From contig CAXXLX010000001.1 in assembly GCA_963665235.2 (NCBI GenBank), forward strand, positions 3,712,001 to 3,776,000: a stretch of DNA of 64,000 nucleotides, read 5' to 3'. The position numbers and the translations under genes were made by a program. The notes beneath the pieces are model-generated. The model was not told the DNA's origin and did no database searches. It worked only from the letters and a program-made list of their open reading frames with translations. Shown here one piece after another: positions 25,011 through 32,207 of this stretch (its first letter is position 1; each line of letters starts with the position of its first letter). This DNA comes from Candidatus Poribacteria bacterium. Its GTDB lineage: Bacteria > Poribacteria > WGA-4E > WGA-3G.

Positions 25011-27152
25011 ATGTTAGAGCCAAATAATTTTACCACTTGGGCATTACCGCCCGATGCCTTGGCACGATTCGGAAAAGGACAAGTGCTTGACTTAGCTGTC
25101 TCCTCGGATGGTAAATATCTTGCCGTTGGAAGTTGGGCCGGCGCGTGGTGGTATGAACTCTCCACAGGCACCCCCCTTACGTTGTGTGAAACAGAGCGAG
25201 GTATGATTGACTGTATTGCCCTTTGCCCTGCTGAGAAACCGTGGTTGGCTATTTCGAACTCCGATAGGCATGGGGCACCGGTAGTCAAAGTGTGGGATGT
25301 GCAAACAGGTGAATGTGTATCTGTTCTCGCTCCGTTGCCGAAACCGATTTGCGATTTCCTCTGTTTTTCGTCGTCATCAGGTGAATGGGTTGCTGCAGTC
25401 GCAGAAGAACTTAATACCGAGTTTTCTATCTATATTTGGAACGCGGCGACTGGCACACTACACGCTGAGTTGAATCTTCCGATTGCTGACATTCCATCGC
25501 ACTCGTACGACGATTTGCTCTACTTTGCTACTATCGGTGCTGTGGCGTTTTCACCCAACAATCGCCTGCTTGCCGGTATTCCTAGCTCCCGTGCACTTGA
25601 TAACGCTGAACGCGTTAGTTTCATTTCTGTATGGGATACAACGGTCCAGGAACACATCAGTCTTCTCACAGACGATACGGAAGTTTTGCACTCCTTATGT
25701 TTTTCACCTACCGGACAGCTCCTCGCTACCGGGGGTGCTAAAGGGAGTGTCAAGGTATGGGATGTCTCTACTTGGCAGCTGCATCAGACATATCCATCAC
25801 GTGGGGATTATCTGATGAATGTTTCCTACGCCTCCGATGGTACACTGCGCGTAATGGGTGTCTCTCATGATGAATGCACGGTCACTGTATGGGATGTAGA
25901 ACAGCAAAAGGAGCTTTCCACTTTTCAAGGAAAAATCTATTTTGATGGCGAAATTCAGCCCACTCATTTTTCCAGCGGCGCTCATCTCGCCTTAAAAATT
26001 GATTCTGAAGTGCAGGTCAAATCGGTAAGTGCCAACGGCAAGCTTTTCACACTGCCTTGGGACCTCGGTTATCCACATTCGCTCACATTCTCGGCGGATG
26101 GAAAGACGCTCGCCTGTGGTTATCGCAACTTTGGGGGTGTCATGTTATATGATAGGACAACCCATCATTCGCAACAGATAGCCGTTGAACCGATGTGTGA
26201 AACTCATGCCGTTTTTTCAGATGCTACATCGGGAAAACTCTATACGACCGGGTTTCCGCCAACCTCCAGTGAGTATTGGGGAGACACCCTCACGTTGTGG
26301 GAAATTGGACAAAGTGAACCGATAGCTGAATTGCCTCCTCCTGTCGAGCATCCGGAAAAGTTTGGTCGGTATAGCATGGCATATTCGCCCATAACAAACC
26401 TTCTTGCTTGCGGAAATGAAACGAATGCTGAGGACTTGCCTGAAAATGACCCTGAAAACGGCGCGGTTTATGTATGGGATGTCGCCCGGGGACAGATGCA
26501 GCACATATTCAGAGGCAAACATACGGATTCTGTCGGGTTTGTGAGGTTCAGTCCGGATGGCACACGCCTTATCAGTAGAGATACTGATGGCACAGATCGG
26601 GTGTGGGACGTAACGTGCAGTGAAGAGATAGTCGAATTTCCTGAAAATTTTATGAAGCATGGAGTTTTTGACTACGCTCGTTATGAAGCTGAATATGAAG
26701 CGTTAGCAGAACGCTTTGAAGAGGTATACTTTTTATCTGGTTTCAGACCTCAGGTGTTTTCTTCGTGTGGAAATCTCATTGCGGGTGCATTTTCTGATGA
26801 CAAGATATTAGTGTGGGATATTGAGCGGTGTGAAGCACGCGTGACAATACACAAACCTCTGACAGTGTCAAGGCCTCCTTCGGTGGATCCGATAGAGCTT
26901 TCCCCTTGTGGTCGGTATTTAGCTTACGGTGAAGTTTGGGAAGAGGGTGTAAAGAAAGTTCCTGTTCGGTTGTGGGACATCAGCACCGGTGAAAACATCG
27001 CCACCTTTCGGGGGCATCCGACAGATATTCAGTGCCTTGCGTTTTCACCGGACAGCACAGTTTTAGCAAGCGGTAGTTTCGATGGCACTATTCTGCTCTG
27101 GGATTTGACACCTTATCTATCTCATCACGGATGCAATACGGGAACATTGTAA
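25011..27152 (+). CDS. WD40-repeat protein
   Basis: LPPDALARFGKG N-terminus; repeated FSP.G..LA.G...VWD; GHPTDIQCLAFSPD..LASGSFDGTILLWD. Confidence 0.9.
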   Translation: MLEPNNFTTWALPPDALARFGKGQVLDLAVSSDGKYLAVGSWAGAWWYELSTGTPLTLCETERGMIDCIALCPAEKPWLAISNSDRHGAPVVKVWDVQTGECVSVLAPLPKPICDFLCFSSSSGEWVAAVAEELNTEFSIYIWNAATGTLHAELNLPIADIPSHSYDDLLYFATIGAVAFSPNNRLLAGIPSSRALDNAERVSFISVWDTTVQEHISLLTDDTEVLHSLCFSPTGQLLATGGAKGSVKVWDVSTWQLHQTYPSRGDYLMNVSYASDGTLRVMGVSHDECTVTVWDVEQQKELSTFQGKIYFDGEIQPTHFSSGAHLALKIDSEVQVKSVSANGKLFTLPWDLGYPHSLTFSADGKTLACGYRNFGGVMLYDRTTHHSQQIAVEPMCETHAVFSDATSGKLYTTGFPPTSSEYWGDTLTLWEIGQSEPIAELPPPVEHPEKFGRYSMAYSPITNLLACGNETNAEDLPENDPENGAVYVWDVARGQMQHIFRGKHTDSVGFVRFSPDGTRLISRDTDGTDRVWDVTCSEEIVEFPENFMKHGVFDYARYEAEYEALAERFEEVYFLSGFRPQVFSSCGNLIAGAFSDDKILVWDIERCEARVTIHKPLTVSRPPSVDPIELSPCGRYLAYGEVWEEGVKKVPVRLWDISTGENIATFRGHPTDIQCLAFSPDSTVLASGSFDGTILLWDLTPYLSHHGCNTGTL

Positions 27153-27226
27153 ACAGGAACGGCTAACGGACGTGGCGTTTCAACATCCGCATTCCATAAA
27201 AATTCAGCATTTTTTCATAAAAAAAA

Positions 27227-27255
27227 TTGACATTTCTCGAAAATTAAGGTATACT
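27227..27255 (+). promoter_or_regulatory. Promoter upstream of higA-like gene, reading into the IsrB element
   Basis: TTGACA, 17 bp spacer, TATACT. Confidence 0.65.
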
Positions 27256-27469
27256 TGATATGTCAACTGGGGATGTAACGATGGCGTGTCCATACTACTA
27301 TATAATCTCAGCGAGTTAACCACTAAGGTGATAATTATGGAGATTAAACCAATCAAAACTCAAGCAGACTATGAAGCTGCACTGAAGGAAATAGAACGAC
27401 TTTGGGGGACGAGCCACGGGTCGCCAGAAGGGGATAAACTTGATGTGCTTGTTACACTAGTAGAGGCTT

Positions 27470-27675
27470 GTAAAGATCACCCAGCTAAAGCTTGGGTGCT
27501 TTGACAAAGCGTAGCCACACACGTTCCCTGTCAAGGATTAAGTTCTTCACTACAGTAATATATCGGGTATTCTGAGCGTGGCAGCTCATAAGATGTCTCG
27601 GATGCTCCCCAAGTCCGACCCCTCTCTGAATACCTGATCTGGATGGGGAAATATACAACCCGAAAGGGAGATTAC
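27470..27675 (+). ncRNA. omegaRNA scaffold (HEARO-like); guide supplied by the 5' flank
   Basis: Non-coding 210 nt before isrB; GGATGCTCCCCAAGTCC...CCCTCT with downstream GGGGA complement and a CCCGAAAGGG hairpin, typical of IscB/IsrB omegaRNAs. Confidence 0.75.
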
Positions 27676-27680
27676 AAACT

Positions 27681-28709
27681 ATGTTTGTTCCGGTTCAAAG
27701 CAAGTCTGGCAATCCATTAATGCCGACAGATTCTAACAAAGCAGGCGTGCTAATCAAAAAAGGATTGGCAACGCCATATTGGCGTAACGGTATCTTTTGT
27801 ATTCGGCTAAACTACGAGACAAAAGAACACACACAGAAAATCTGTGTAGGCGTGGATCCTGGTTCCAAGAAAGAAGGCTTCACGGTGAAGTCTGAGGCTC
27901 ACACATATCTGAATGTGCAAGCCGATGCACATAACAAAGTTGGAAAAAAAGTTAAAAGAAGACGTATCTTGAGACGGGGTCGTAGAACCCGGAAGTGTCC
28001 AAACCGGAAGCATCGAACAAATCGAGCAGCGAAGAAAGAACGTCTTCCGGCAGGCACACGTGCCCGTTGGGATTGGAAACTTCGGATATTAGATTGGTTG
28101 TCTAAACTCTATCCTGTTACACACGTCTGTGTTGAGGACATCAAAGCACGGACTATTGAACATGCTAAGAAATGGAACACAGCTTTTAGTCCGCTTGAGG
28201 TGGGCAAGACATGGTTTTATGGTGAAATAGAAAAGCGGTGGGAACTGCTAACCCTTCAAGGGTGGCAGACAAAACAGCTGCGCGACAGGCTCGGTTTGAA
28301 AAAGTCATCTCAAAAGTTGGCAGCGACTTTTGAGGCACATTGTGTTGACGCGTGGTGTTTAGCCTACCATACCGTGGGGGGGGATGCGGAAACCGTGGAC
28401 AATACAGATATATTCTGCATTTCACCGATACCCATACGCAGGCGGGAACTGCATCGGCAGAACCCACAAACCGGGGGAAACAGACCCCGCTATGGGGGGA
28501 CTGTGCTAACGGATACACTTATCAAAAACACACTGATCAAACATGGTAAGCATGGTATCACACGCCTTGCGGGTATTAATGCGAAAGGGGTGTTTTCTAT
28601 CTATAGCTTAGAAGGCGAACGCCTCACAACAAGTGCGAAACGCACAGATTTTCAAGTCCTAACACGCTTGAACTTCAACTACAAAGGCGGATTTTCCTCC
28701 CCCGCATAA
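27681..28709 (+). CDS. isrB: IsrB RNA-guided nickase (PLMP/RRXRR, split RuvC, no HNH)
   Basis: PLMP; RuvC-I VGVDPG; Arg-rich bridge helix RRRILRRGRR; RuvC-II VEDI; RuvC-III HCVDA; 342 aa with no HNH/CxxC insert. Confidence 0.88.
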   Translation: MFVPVQSKSGNPLMPTDSNKAGVLIKKGLATPYWRNGIFCIRLNYETKEHTQKICVGVDPGSKKEGFTVKSEAHTYLNVQADAHNKVGKKVKRRRILRRGRRTRKCPNRKHRTNRAAKKERLPAGTRARWDWKLRILDWLSKLYPVTHVCVEDIKARTIEHAKKWNTAFSPLEVGKTWFYGEIEKRWELLTLQGWQTKQLRDRLGLKKSSQKLAATFEAHCVDAWCLAYHTVGGDAETVDNTDIFCISPIPIRRRELHRQNPQTGGNRPRYGGTVLTDTLIKNTLIKHGKHGITRLAGINAKGVFSIYSLEGERLTTSAKRTDFQVLTRLNFNYKGGFSSPA

Positions 28710-29059
28710 ATGCTGGGGGTTTCCAATCCGAAGAACTTGATGAAGAGGAACATTATCCGATTCCACCGCCAGACCCTATTGAAGCAATCCTTCACTACAT
28801 GGAAAACCAAGGGTTATCTGAAGATGACCTCGAACCCTATCTCGGTTCGTGTCCTTACGTATTAGAAGTCCTGAATCGGCAACGCAGCTTGTCTCTGGAC
28901 ATGATTCGGAAATTGCACAAAGCACTCGGAATTCCAGATGATATCTTGGTTCAACCTTATGCATTACGAACGAATTCATGAAAAATTTCGGTTTTCATTA
29001 GAATTAGTTTCAACAACATTTCCACTTTGTAGGAATTTGTTATCAAAACTAGCTATATT

Positions 29060-29202
29060 AACGCAAGTTGCCATATAGTAGCACAAACTTCCTAGTTTGT
29101 GCCATAAGGGTGTAAACTAAAAGTTCACGCTACAATTAGCAGCAGTTTTTCACTAAAAGCGGCGTTCCCAAGTCTAAAAACTTATAGGTAGCAACTTGGG
29201 TT
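29060..29202. mobile_element. MITE, AACCCAAGTTGC-TIR family, 5-bp TSD ATATT
   Basis: Ends AACGCAAGTTGC / GCAACTTGGGTT; ATATT at 29055-29059 and 29203-29207; reverse complement aligns with 482-635. Confidence 0.85.
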
Positions 29203-29207
29203 ATATT

Positions 29208-32207
29208 ATGAGGAAAACAAAAATTATGAGATTATTACGATATATACTATGCCTATTCACAATTTTGGCATTCCTTGCACTACCGGTAAGTGCGGATGTC
29301 GATTGGAAAGCACTTGATGTAGGAAATTTATCCTCTGCTATTTACAATACCGCAGTCGTTGGATTTCCCAGTAGTCCTACATCGAACCCCTCCGGATGGT
29401 GGCCTGCCGGAACAAATGACTCCTACATCTATGAAGGCGATATTTGGATCGGTGCCAAAAAAGGCGGGGAAATTGGCGTTTCTGAAGCAGATGGACGGCA
29501 CAGCGAAATTTGGCCGACCGACGACGTGCCGGAGGTCATTTCAAACAAACCCGGTGTGACAGCAAAAGGGACACCGACAAGTCAAACCATCATGTTCAAA
29601 TGCTCTGACACCAACCCCGCAGCAAACACGGGGTTAATCCTCGGGCTAGAACTTGAGGTCAACGGATATCAATGGAGTTATGCGCCACTTTACGATTTCT
29701 TTATCCTTGAGTACAACGTCAAAAACGTTGGAGAGGACACGCTTGAAGACCTATTTATGGCGTTCCGATACGACGTGGATATCTCCAGCAATGAAACCGG
29801 GACATCGAACTACTCCGCTGATGACTTCGTCGCCCTCGATCAGACTCCAGACGGGCTCAACCCTGACGCACACCCGAACCGTTATCTCTCTTACGGATTC
29901 TCCAACGCTTCCTCACCGGGTTACATCGGTTTGCGTGTTCTAGACGCATATCTCGGGGAGGATGAGGAAGATGCCGCGGCAAAAATCCCGTTCACAGCAC
30001 ATAAGCGGATTACGATTTCTACTGACCCAACCACTGATGCCGAGATGTACGCGCTAATCAGTACTCCTGGGGTTGAACCGCTTCCTGCAAACTATGACGA
30101 CCAACGTTTCATCCAATCTTATGGCCCGATTGAATCGTTCGCGCCCGGCGACTCCTTCAATATCATAATCACAGTCGCAATCGGCGAAGGCCTTTCAGGA
30201 TTGCAAGCGGCTTCGGATTGGGCCCAGAAATTGTACGACGACGATTACATTGCCCCAGCACCACCCCCCTCACCCCTTCTCGCAGCTTATCCAGCAGATG
30301 GACAGGTGTCGCTCGTCTGGGAGAGTGCCGAACGTTGGGTGGATGCGGGAGTCAATAAAAGCATTGAGGAATACATTGACCCAACCGACCCGGATAAAAT
30401 CTTTGAAGGATATCGGGTGTACAGACGGGATACCAGTTACAATCAGGACACCGGCACCCCTGTGGAAAGCTGGAAATTGCTAATGGAATTAGACAAACCG
30501 AGTGCCACAGGCAATTTCTTCACAGTGGCACACGTCGGCAAGCAGTCCGATGCTATCATTGAAAATGAGGGAGACGAGCCCTACTTCGCTGACTTCTTCA
30601 AAAACGCAACGTACGCCATTAAATTCAATTCAAGCACTAATTTTGAGGTGATTAACACAACGTTGTGGGAAGTTATGGCGTATAATGCCGAATTTCCAGC
30701 AAATGGCGGCGGGTACGTTGTCGTCAAAGATCCGGCCACAGGTGAAGCTTACCCGGATGGGACATACCGCTCTGGAGAACTCATCTATTTCGGTGGGCTC
30801 TACGTTAAAATTACCGATGGTCCCTCAGGGCCTCCGGTCGCAGGGGATATTTTCCGCGTCGTTTCCACACCATCAATTGCCCTCGGTGAGGATGTAGGTA
30901 TCAAGAATTTCTATACCGATGAAGGGCTAATTAATGGAACGCAATACACCTACGCGGTCACCTCTTACGATACAGGCAACCCGCAAAAGGGATTGCCCGC
31001 GATGGAGAGCAGTCAAATTGAAACGATGGTTCATGTTGTACCACGTCCTCACCCAGCAGGATACAAAGCACCTGTTGTTGAGGTCAAACAGGCCGACGCT
31101 GTAAACGTCACTGTTGAACCCATGGTGCTCGTACCAAGCGATATTACGGGAAATGAATATAAGATTGTCTGGTACGGCGCAAAACAGGTCGGACCCGCAG
31201 GATACATCACAGGCCCCGGCTATCAACCCCCCGGTTATGAAATCGTTGACACCGTAACGAATCAAACGGTAGTCGAAAGACAACCTTTCGCTTGGTATGA
31301 CCCTGCCAACCAGCAAGCTGTTGAAGTGCTCTCCCCGATGTTTGATGGCATCGTCTTGAAGCTAACAGGTGCTGATGTCTCCTACGGAACCCCAGCCGAA
31401 AACGGAATTAACGCCGTTAAATTGACAGCAGGCACAGTCACCGACTGGTCAGTGAAAATTGAATCCCCCGGCGTGGCTGATAACACCTGGCCAAACGTCT
31501 GGTGGTCCACCTATTATCGTCCGCATACCTACACTATCACGTTTACTGACGATACACACGTCAAAGTGGTAGACGAAGATACGGGGGAAGAGATAGCATT
31601 CAATGACCAACGGGCCGATGGATACGCTATCCTGACAGGGGCAGGTTGGAGCGATGAATACGTCCCAGCGGATACAGCAGGTTATTTCCGTATTTTCATT
31701 CGCGGTGCTTACGTGTACATTTTCGATCCGAACAGTGAAATCTCTGCTGGCGATGTATTTACTGTCGAAATGGGCGGTATTAGTGCACCACAAGATGGAG
31801 ACGAGCTGCTTTTGACAACTCAAGGCGCATCGCTTGATGCTGAAGACATCAAAGCGGAGCTCGAAAACATTCGCGTCGTGCCGAATCCTTACCTTGTCAC
31901 AAACAGAGCTGTAACCGAAGTAGGAACAGACAAAATCTTTTTCACACATCTCCCACCTCGATGCACAATCCGAATTTATACGCTGACAGGTGAATTGGTA
32001 CGCGAAATTGAGCATGAAAGTACTACCCCCTTTAATCCTGATGAACGGTTAGGACAAGGAGACAAAGGAAGCACAGCTGAATTCAATCTCCTTAACCGCT
32101 ATAATCAGGCAATAGCAAGTGGTGTGTACATCTATCATGTTGAAGCAGTAGATGAGAGCAAGACTGCCATCGGAAACAAAATCGGGCGGTTTGCAATCAT
32201 TAGATAA
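29208..32207 (+). CDS. Large secreted protein with FN3-like region and C-terminal Ig-like (T9SS-CTD/FlgD-like) domain
   Basis: Signal peptide (start 29208 or 29226); PAPPPSP..V.L.W, FEGYRVYR, D.GL.NG..Y.YAVT.YD; IRVVPNPY..FTHLP..CTIRIYT..GELVR..ASGVYIYHV. Confidence 0.8.
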   Translation: MRKTKIMRLLRYILCLFTILAFLALPVSADVDWKALDVGNLSSAIYNTAVVGFPSSPTSNPSGWWPAGTNDSYIYEGDIWIGAKKGGEIGVSEADGRHSEIWPTDDVPEVISNKPGVTAKGTPTSQTIMFKCSDTNPAANTGLILGLELEVNGYQWSYAPLYDFFILEYNVKNVGEDTLEDLFMAFRYDVDISSNETGTSNYSADDFVALDQTPDGLNPDAHPNRYLSYGFSNASSPGYIGLRVLDAYLGEDEEDAAAKIPFTAHKRITISTDPTTDAEMYALISTPGVEPLPANYDDQRFIQSYGPIESFAPGDSFNIIITVAIGEGLSGLQAASDWAQKLYDDDYIAPAPPPSPLLAAYPADGQVSLVWESAERWVDAGVNKSIEEYIDPTDPDKIFEGYRVYRRDTSYNQDTGTPVESWKLLMELDKPSATGNFFTVAHVGKQSDAIIENEGDEPYFADFFKNATYAIKFNSSTNFEVINTTLWEVMAYNAEFPANGGGYVVVKDPATGEAYPDGTYRSGELIYFGGLYVKITDGPSGPPVAGDIFRVVSTPSIALGEDVGIKNFYTDEGLINGTQYTYAVTSYDTGNPQKGLPAMESSQIETMVHVVPRPHPAGYKAPVVEVKQADAVNVTVEPMVLVPSDITGNEYKIVWYGAKQVGPAGYITGPGYQPPGYEIVDTVTNQTVVERQPFAWYDPANQQAVEVLSPMFDGIVLKLTGADVSYGTPAENGINAVKLTAGTVTDWSVKIESPGVADNTWPNVWWSTYYRPHTYTITFTDDTHVKVVDEDTGEEIAFNDQRADGYAILTGAGWSDEYVPADTAGYFRIFIRGAYVYIFDPNSEISAGDVFTVEMGGISAPQDGDELLLTTQGASLDAEDIKAELENIRVVPNPYLVTNRAVTEVGTDKIFFTHLPPRCTIRIYTLTGELVREIEHESTTPFNPDERLGQGDKGSTAEFNLLNRYNQAIASGVYIYHVEAVDESKTAIGNKIGRFAIIR

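Follow-up and report, generated by a model that had tools for sequence, protein, structure and literature searches.

A stretch of 64,000 nucleotides (nt) from Candidatus Poribacteria bacterium (GCA_963665235.2, contig CAXXLX010000001.1, positions 3,712,001-3,776,000, forward strand; "the window" means this whole stretch) carries a mobile element of the IsrB type. We consider it very probable that this is an intact, non-autonomous transposon of the ISC1 group of IS200/IS605 transposons, with IsrB (IscB1) as its sole gene and with a mechanism as in its relatives. Block 27470-28739 is a discrete and precise insertion in a small HigA-like helix-turn-helix (HTH) gene, where the frame of the host open reading frame (ORF) resumes at 28740 (ATGA) and runs to a TGA stop at 28979-28981. 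Removal of the block gives GAG GCT T/AT GAA GAG, read as EAYEE (a slash in such strings marks the joint), and zero bases were found to be duplicated at the target site. The last base of the left flank is T and that of the block is G, and the block begins with G and the right flank with A; with unlike bases at each boundary, neither boundary can slide. The protein of intact homologues was observed to be continuous over the junction (...GDKLDVLVTLVE(A/V)Y(A/E)(E/Q)..., of the ...LVTLVEAYEE... type) at six loci (L043, L044, L045, L047, L048 and L051; five further loci were left out). The features of the insertion site are as follows.

27470-28739, + strand: mobile element of 1270 nt, ISC1/IsrB, IS200/IS605 superfamily, non-autonomous, no target duplication.
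27337-27469, + strand: 5' part of the HTH gene, with ATG at 27337, 44 codons and one base (T); contiguous with 28740-28981 in homologues and metagenome contigs.
28740-28981, + strand: 3' part of the HTH gene, AT followed by 79 codons and the stop.
28740-28743, + strand: ATGA target motif made of host-gene bases, TCAT on the transposase strand; predicted target-adjacent motif (TAM) of IsrB.
27478-27498: 5' subterminal hairpin (arm CACCCAGC, loop TAAA, arm GCTTGGGTG), the first stem-loop of the omegaRNA; on the other strand it is the likely Y1-transposase-binding hairpin at the right end of the transposon.
28699-28719: 3' subterminal hairpin (arm CCCCCGCAT, loop AA, arm ATGCTGGGGG), imperfect; likely transposase-binding hairpin at the left end of the transposon.

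An empty allele was sought by placing contigs from four public runs on 27150-29050. A 638-nt contig from DNA run X5 joins 27469/28740, skipping 1270 nt, with 146 nt on its shorter side, and one contig from DNA run X7 has the same joint with only 26 nt on its shorter side. The X5 contig shows 41 mismatches to the window in 455 placed bases (about 9% divergence of the flanks) and so comes from a relative, another strain. An earlier note on this DNA had claimed that deletion of the block restores the host frame without a target-site duplication and that ATGA lies directly 3' of the junction. Both claims agree with the sequence (28740-28743 read as ATGA), and the first agrees also with the six intact homologues and with the joint seen in runs X5 and X7.

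The element begins with GTAAAG... (GTAAAGATCACCC...) at 27470 and ends with ...ACTTG (...CCGAAGAACTTG) at 28739, and both of its ends carry imperfect G+C-rich hairpins without terminal inverted repeats. In its own 5.3-Mb genome, 56 DNA matches and 31 protein matches to the element were found, and 20 protein matches have uninterrupted frames (L021-L040). By a motif scan 29 element 5' ends were located. They fall into two types, GTAAAGATCACCC... and GTCAATAACCCCC..., and the differences between the types are compensatory. Of these copies 28 have a resolvable 3' end, 21 of them full length (1261-1410 nt) and seven ORF-less minis (450-567 nt); the copy without a recognisable 3' end (5' end at C1:1658347) was excluded from the counts. 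All 28 resolved copies end in ..TTG followed by ATGA, each with different flanks, and the 3' hairpin is kept in all copies, with the stop codon of isrB lying in the loop of this hairpin in the window copy. The expectation of the earlier note that other copies share the same boundaries was therefore borne out, and the ATGA flank found in 28 of 28 copies is NTGA-like as had been proposed, which fits the published NTGA TAM of DtIsrB and the published N/ATGA target of ISC1. The last 16 nt of the 5' flank followed by ATGA were sought genome-wide for 27 copies and no element-free twin site was found.

Several other features of these copies were observed. The minis (C1:19462, 337433, 504553, 532866 and 1154421, and on the minus strand 681345 and 1888563) have retained both the omegaRNA region and the 3' end, with ATGA beside them; as PATE-like derivatives they would need IsrB and TnpA in trans. 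Three copies, L004 (C1:3598792), L005 (C1:3020110) and L039 (C1:2522249), have an extra 45-85 nt directly upstream of the isrB start codon with an inverted repeat of its own (..GGAAGTAAAAC..GTTTTACTTCC..), which may represent either a nested insertion of small size or a duplicated Shine-Dalgarno (SD) hairpin. A 32-nt omegaRNA fragment (C1:2865794-2865825) was noticed 31 nt upstream of one copy, and the copy at C1:2522249 has an element end (..CTTG/ATGA) in its 5' flank, 16 nt upstream. Such remnants of older elements beside current copies suggest repeated insertion at or near the same sites.

The sole gene of the element is the following.

27681-28709, + strand: isrB, 342 amino acids (aa), with PLMP at aa 12-15, RuvC I (D59), an Arg-rich bridge helix, RuvC II (E152), RuvC III (H220/D223) and a putative C-terminal TAM-interacting region.

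Judged by its sequence and predicted fold, the product is IsrB, an HNH-less RuvC nuclease related to IscB and Cas9. At E<=0.1 the 342-aa ORF matches a single Pfam family, RRXRR (aa 3-155, E 1.4e-30), and none of the HNH families; 67 residues separate E152 from H220. The NCBIfam model guided_IscB matches aa 5-155 only and below its cut-off, as is expected because the protein is without HNH. The best sequence match in the PDB is 8DMB, the IsrB of Desulfovirgula thermocuniculi (DtIsrB; E 7.7e-38, aa 3-277), and the IscB chains in the PDB match the N-terminal part of the protein only. The PLMP motif aligns to ..GRPLMPT.. of DtIsrB, and the catalytic motifs (D59 in VDPG, E152 in VEDI, H220 and D223 in HCVD) align with RuvC I-III of the same protein. 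These four residues are invariant among 41 unique full-length homologues from its own genome and from relatives, and also in an alignment of 26 rows.

An AlphaFold2 model built with 26 family members has a mean predicted local distance difference test score (pLDDT) of 74.6, with values of 84-95 over aa 1-80 and 76-88 over aa 280-328. Its top fold match is again 8DMB (E 6.9e-23, template modelling scores 0.63/0.65, 338 columns, 30% identity), above all IscB structures. The putative C-terminal TAM-interacting region is reached by the 338-column fold alignment, the sequence alignment ends at aa 277 and pLDDT is partly below 50 there. The identity of the protein as IsrB, which the earlier note had asserted together with three intact RuvC motifs and the absence of HNH, is in agreement with these results. 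The ratio of nonsynonymous to synonymous substitution rates (dN/dS) was 0.11-0.21 in six of seven comparisons with other copies of the genome, the synonymous rate (dS) being saturated in the seventh, and 0.11-0.19 against the three nearest copies. These low ratios show that isrB has been under purifying selection while the copies diverged, and the selection acts on the IsrB protein. By its likeness to DtIsrB the 342-aa protein would be expected to have nicking activity.

The region upstream of isrB holds the RNA component.

27470-27680, + strand: omegaRNA scaffold of 211 nt, spanning the element from its first base up to the start of isrB, supported by a sub-threshold HEARO match and by covariation.
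27450-27469, + strand: predicted guide of 20 nt, the 5' flank adjoining the element (...TGTTACACTAGTAGAGGCTT); it matches the uninterrupted allele next to ATGA and is assigned by position only.

The length of the guide is borrowed from DtIsrB (PMC9581776). The structured RNA starts at the transposon end, directly upstream of isrB and in the same orientation, and the comparative data identify 27470-27680 as a divergent omegaRNA which is conserved and covarying. The full HEARO model (RF02033) matches 27470-27675 with 18.7 bits (E 0.48), and two sibling copies of the other 5'-end type were observed to score 32.8 and 30.8 bits, starting at the first base of the element. By the Rfam gathering threshold (score 83) the region does not belong to RF02033. 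For the alignment, 36 upstream regions were used (12 distinct ones from its own genome and 24 from relatives), where copies with the extra 45-85 nt were excluded. RNAalifold predicted 28 pairs, 20 of them with compensatory changes. We also wrote a structure of 38 pairs, which consists of an outer stem, the first hairpin, a 9-base-pair stem enclosing two hairpins and a 4-base-pair pseudoknot. In this structure 91.7% of the cells were found to be paired, against 77.6% in shuffled alignments and 34-48% with slid partners. Double changes occur in 25 of the 38 pairs, among them changes in the hairpin 27478-27498, which is one helix of the structure and shows compensatory changes across homologues; the pseudoknot pairs are invariant. 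None of 500 shuffles reached any of five measures, a count that is not to be taken as a probability since the sequences are related. With respect to the covariance-model check suggested in the earlier note, the result is mixed: the match is full length and starts at the first base, the score lies below gathering, and the covariation of the family itself is strong.

Contigs of metatranscriptome run X9 cover 27470-27655, where the element is multi-copy, ends and strand are not visible in contigs and DNA carry-over is possible. The depth in X9 (97-515 over the omegaRNA and 0-5 over the ORF) was dropped as a sign of expression since the DNA runs X5 and X7 go in the same direction; conservation is higher in the multi-copy scaffold than in the ORF, which accounts for the greater depth over the omegaRNA in the DNA runs. 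Zero X9 contigs were placed over 27278-27469, which is uninformative either way on read-through from the host promoter. A self-splicing IStron was dropped, as group I and group II intron models gave no match (Rfam, 27000-29200), and an S15-leader hit on the minus strand (28960-29018; 20.3 bits against a threshold of 39.5) was treated as chance. HEARO is said to have been first described by Weinberg et al. in 2009, and HEARO elements have reportedly been seen next to ATGA or GTGA.

The element shares its genome with transposases which might act on it. There is no tnpA inside 27470-28739, and 13 matches to Y1_Tnp (PF01797), 12 of them over the family cut-off, were found in the genome, so that the trans tnpA looked for on the advice of the earlier note has candidates. 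In three copies of IS605 type, where a tnpB-like frame follows tnpA, the tnpA-side end aligns with the last 50 nt of the element (36-38 of 53 columns), with the same hairpin and ..GGAAGACTTG in common. These three copies are flanked by ATAA, not ATGA. Furthermore, hairpins with the same loop as 27478-27498 adjoin the tnpA genes of the genome. The TnpA proteins of the three copies (C1:3153209, C2:339792 and C1:32727; L053-L055) have HVH at the HUH motif in one case and PVH in two, and the two PVH copies may be catalytically impaired. The copy on C2 was noticed to lie about 2 kb from an IsrB element. As a separate observation, two Y1-transposase-like genes (C1:831796-832125 and C1:1178437-1178781; L062 and L059) have arrays of palindromic units on both sides, an arrangement which resembles that of REP-associated (RAYT-like) transposases with REP arrays.

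The mechanism that we consider for the element follows from characterised relatives, namely DtIsrB and GstIscB with GstTnpA. A TnpA supplied in trans would excise and insert the element as single-stranded DNA at the target TCAT (ATGA on the other strand). A transcript starting outside the element, here presumably at the host promoter, would be trimmed to guide and omegaRNA. IsrB with this RNA would recognise the element-free allele (...TGTTACACTAGTAGAGGCTT followed by ATGA) and nick the non-target strand, and recombination with the element-bearing copy would restore the element, which amounts to homing or retention. The putative promoter is the following.

27227-27255, + strand: sigma-70-like promoter (TTGACA, 17 nt, TATACT), candidate source of the transcript of guide, omegaRNA and isrB.

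This site agrees with 11 of 12 consensus positions and is the sole + strand site in 26900-29300; promoter-like sites in the region overall are not in excess (5 found against 4.1 expected). The earlier note had the element expressed from the host promoter at 27227; the motif on which this proposal rests was confirmed, and expression from it stays a prediction.

Several points weigh against the reading of the element as intact and working. The closest copies differ by 5-8% in DNA, and pLDDT of the model is below 50 at aa 251-273 and in the C-terminal 14 residues (329-342). The HEARO score of 18.7 bits (30.8-32.8 in siblings) is far under the gathering score of 83, and the scaffold up to the start codon has 211 nt against 262 nt in DtIsrB and may thus be incomplete. 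Of the three TnpA copies whose elements have the terminus in common, two carry PVH in place of HVH at the HUH motif, and because of this the helper may be a different TnpA. Transposition, the 5' end of the RNA and nicking are deduced from homology and anatomy, and nick-driven homing is not reported for any IsrB in the accessible text of PMC9581776, PMC4810608 or bioRxiv 10.1101/2023.03.14.532601.

Some of these points would also suit a different history, in which a once-mobile element is now untranscribed, immobile and nuclease-inactive and is kept since disruption of the orphan HTH gene is costless. The nearest siblings have only 95, 94 and 92% DNA identity with dS of 0.11-0.14, and the empty allele was seen only in DNA with about 9% diverged flanks. 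These two results are also why the earlier note's description of the insertion as recent is not supported: the window copy need not have moved recently. That no transcript of the host promoter is directly attested, and that the HUH motif is altered in two of the three TnpA copies, point in the same direction as well. Against such decay, the ORF is open with the four RuvC residues and the PLMP motif kept, and dN/dS of 0.11-0.19 to the three nearest copies indicates selection after divergence. In addition, both terminal hairpins and the helices of the omegaRNA remain intact, with little or no difference from those of siblings, and the genome holds the 20 protein matches with uninterrupted frames. 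We therefore regard a dead element as unlikely and prefer the intact IsrB transposon.

The interrupted gene itself looks like an orphan antitoxin-type regulator. HTH_3 matches it with 19.6-20 bits, under the Pfam cut-off of 23, no match was obtained in NCBIfam, and in the PDB it matches HigA (5ycl/5ifg) with E of about 2e-5. No toxin gene was found beside it, there being no room between 27152 and 27337, nor beside an intact relative gene (L045:1366-1752). Homologues of its C-terminal half occur in 21 of 41 related genomes, the window's own genome included. The name higA used in the earlier note is thus apt as to the HTH resemblance and weak as a label, given the sub-threshold HTH_3 score and the absent toxin neighbour.

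Relatives of this IsrB (E<=1e-20) were found in 15 of the 41 genomes searched, the window's own included; the same family accounts for 13 (of 24 other genomes) and the three other families of the order for 1 (of 16). A scan of one genome per species gave 280 relatives, and among the best 80 of these, 79 are titled Poribacteria and one 'uncultured bacterium'. The 3' end could be placed at 71 of the best 80 loci from other genomes, with ATGA following in 63 and GTGA in 8. The lineage is widely spread in Poribacteria.

The placement of the copies relative to host start codons was observed to be biased. The classes of sites used here rest on crude open-frame rules, which are not gene calls and by which retention and insertion are not separable. 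Under these rules 18 of the 28 copies of the genome (for example C1:672984, C1:935821 and C2:343511) have a flanking ATG that begins a frame of 129 or more codons and is preceded by no more than 60 open codons, and the same rule holds for 6.0% of 39,594 genomic ATGA sites (binomial P about 7e-16). The element and the frame run in the same direction in these 18 copies. When only copies outside long open frames are considered, start-like sites hold 18 of 21, where 41.7% would be expected (P about 4e-5). Of the 18 start-like copies, 13 have an SD-like motif at a distance of 9-15 nt upstream of the insertion point, and conservation extends over the last 12-15 nt of the element (..CCGAAGA..TTG), which precede the host ATG. 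Among other Poribacteria, 100 or more open codons come after 30 of 70 copies, where the background is 17.5%. The window copy is one of seven which lie inside a long open frame and is an exception to start-codon placement. Five of the seven minis were seen at start-like sites.

We raise it only tentatively, and hold it to be somewhat improbable, that ATGA targeting is a strategy which places the element, in sense orientation, downstream of the ribosome-binding site and ahead of the start codon, where the host promoter transcribes guide, omegaRNA and isrB and the conserved 3' end hands translation on, so that insertions are tolerated and preferentially retained. In such a scheme the host promoter would do the transcribing for a flank-derived guide, an omegaRNA and an isrB that have no promoter inside the element, and the ..CCGAAGA..TTG end, which lies about 30 nt downstream of the isrB stop, would pass translation to the host gene. 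A literature search on IscB and IS605 elements in relation to start codons or ribosome-binding sites found no statement of this kind (supplements not covered). The term 'start codon' has no occurrence in the accessible text of Kapitonov 2016 (PMC4810608; supplements not covered) and occurs once in that of Meers 2023 (bioRxiv 10.1101/2023.03.14.532601), in a legend on the orientation of upstream ORFs.

The same bias could be taken to mean that the element is mainly a leader cassette which modulates or depends on host gene expression, with the nuclease role secondary. The 18 of 28 copies abutting a start-like ATG, the 18 of 21 outside long open frames, the 30 of 70 elsewhere and the conserved last 12-15 nt would all suit such a co-option. 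The window copy itself lies inside a gene and not at a start codon, though, and the catalytic residues are invariant, which is not the case in relatives that are domesticated and nuclease-dead. The number of copies, the minis without an ORF and the empty sites are traits of a transposon. Furthermore, ATGA contains ATG, so that some enrichment would arise from target choice together with loss of gene-disrupting insertions, and the site classes are the crude ones described above. We find this co-option highly improbable, and the element is discussed below as an intact IsrB transposon.

The locus is an ordinary, well-preserved member of the described ISC1/IsrB family, where IsrB, the omegaRNA, the NTGA TAM and the N/ATGA target have already been published. 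ISC1 transposons were described as having a RuvC-only IscB1, 5'-GT termini, an N/ATGA target without target-site duplication and an end in common with IS605, and their mobilisation in trans by Y1 transposases was proposed by the authors (PMC4810608). The present element is similar to ISC1-1_MA of Microcystis aeruginosa (PMC4810608) in its single RuvC-only gene, its insertion at N/ATGA without duplication, its subterminal hairpins and its non-autonomous nature. Both have a 5'-GT terminus (GTCA there, GTAA or GTCA here) and an end shared with a co-resident IS605 whose tnpB runs opposite. They differ in the 3' terminus (..TTG here, CG there), in the host (Poribacteria against a cyanobacterium) and in the number of copies (28 resolved here against 4), and the co-resident IS605 is here flanked by ATAA, not ATGA.

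IsrB proteins have about 350 aa, a PLMP domain and no HNH, and use an omegaRNA with a 20-nt guide (Hirano 2022, PMC9581776). DtIsrB nicks the non-target strand with a TAM of NTGA, and five orthologues have NTG or NTGG (PMC9581776). The protein described here resembles DtIsrB in domain order, size (342 against 353 aa), PLMP, RuvC I-III and lack of HNH; in both the omegaRNA immediately precedes the ORF and is itself preceded by the guide (predicted here), and ATGA fits the NTGA TAM. The scaffold is shorter (211 against 262 nt) and the sequence distant (E 7.7e-38, over aa 3-277 only). With regard to HEARO RF02033, the region has in common a whole-model match which starts at the first base of the element and lies immediately upstream of the nuclease ORF, whereas its scores of 18.7-32.8 bits against a gathering score of 83 set it apart as a divergent omegaRNA that is supported by its own covariation.

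In Geobacillus, one TnpA moves several families of IscB and TnpB elements, and the left-end motif is both the target of the transposase and the TAM of the nuclease (TTCAT for IscB and TTTAT for TnpB; bioRxiv 10.1101/2023.03.14.532601). The same preprint (Meers 2023) reports that excision leaves a donor joint, which the guide RNA targets and IscB and TnpB cut, and that IscB elements tend to run in the same direction as the gene upstream. The present family is comparable to ISGst5 (IscB) and ISGst2 (TnpB) of Geobacillus stearothermophilus, which include non-autonomous elements and PATE-like minis that are mobilised in trans, with a flank-derived guide directed to the donor joint, and whose orientation follows the upstream gene; the flanks TCAT (IsrB) and TTAT (IS605) seen here parallel TTCAT and TTTAT. 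Unlike that of ISGst5, the nuclease is without HNH and would be predicted to make a nick and not a double-strand cut.

As material, the locus offers a compact 342-aa IsrB with intact catalytic residues, and its genome supplies 28 natural sets of guide, target and TAM, seven ORF-less minis and candidate helper transposases. The spread of the lineage in Poribacteria constitutes a natural data set on the transcription of guides encoded outside the element. If the start-codon excess is a true adaptation, and not the outcome of target choice and selection, it would bear on how such elements live in operons without killing the host gene.

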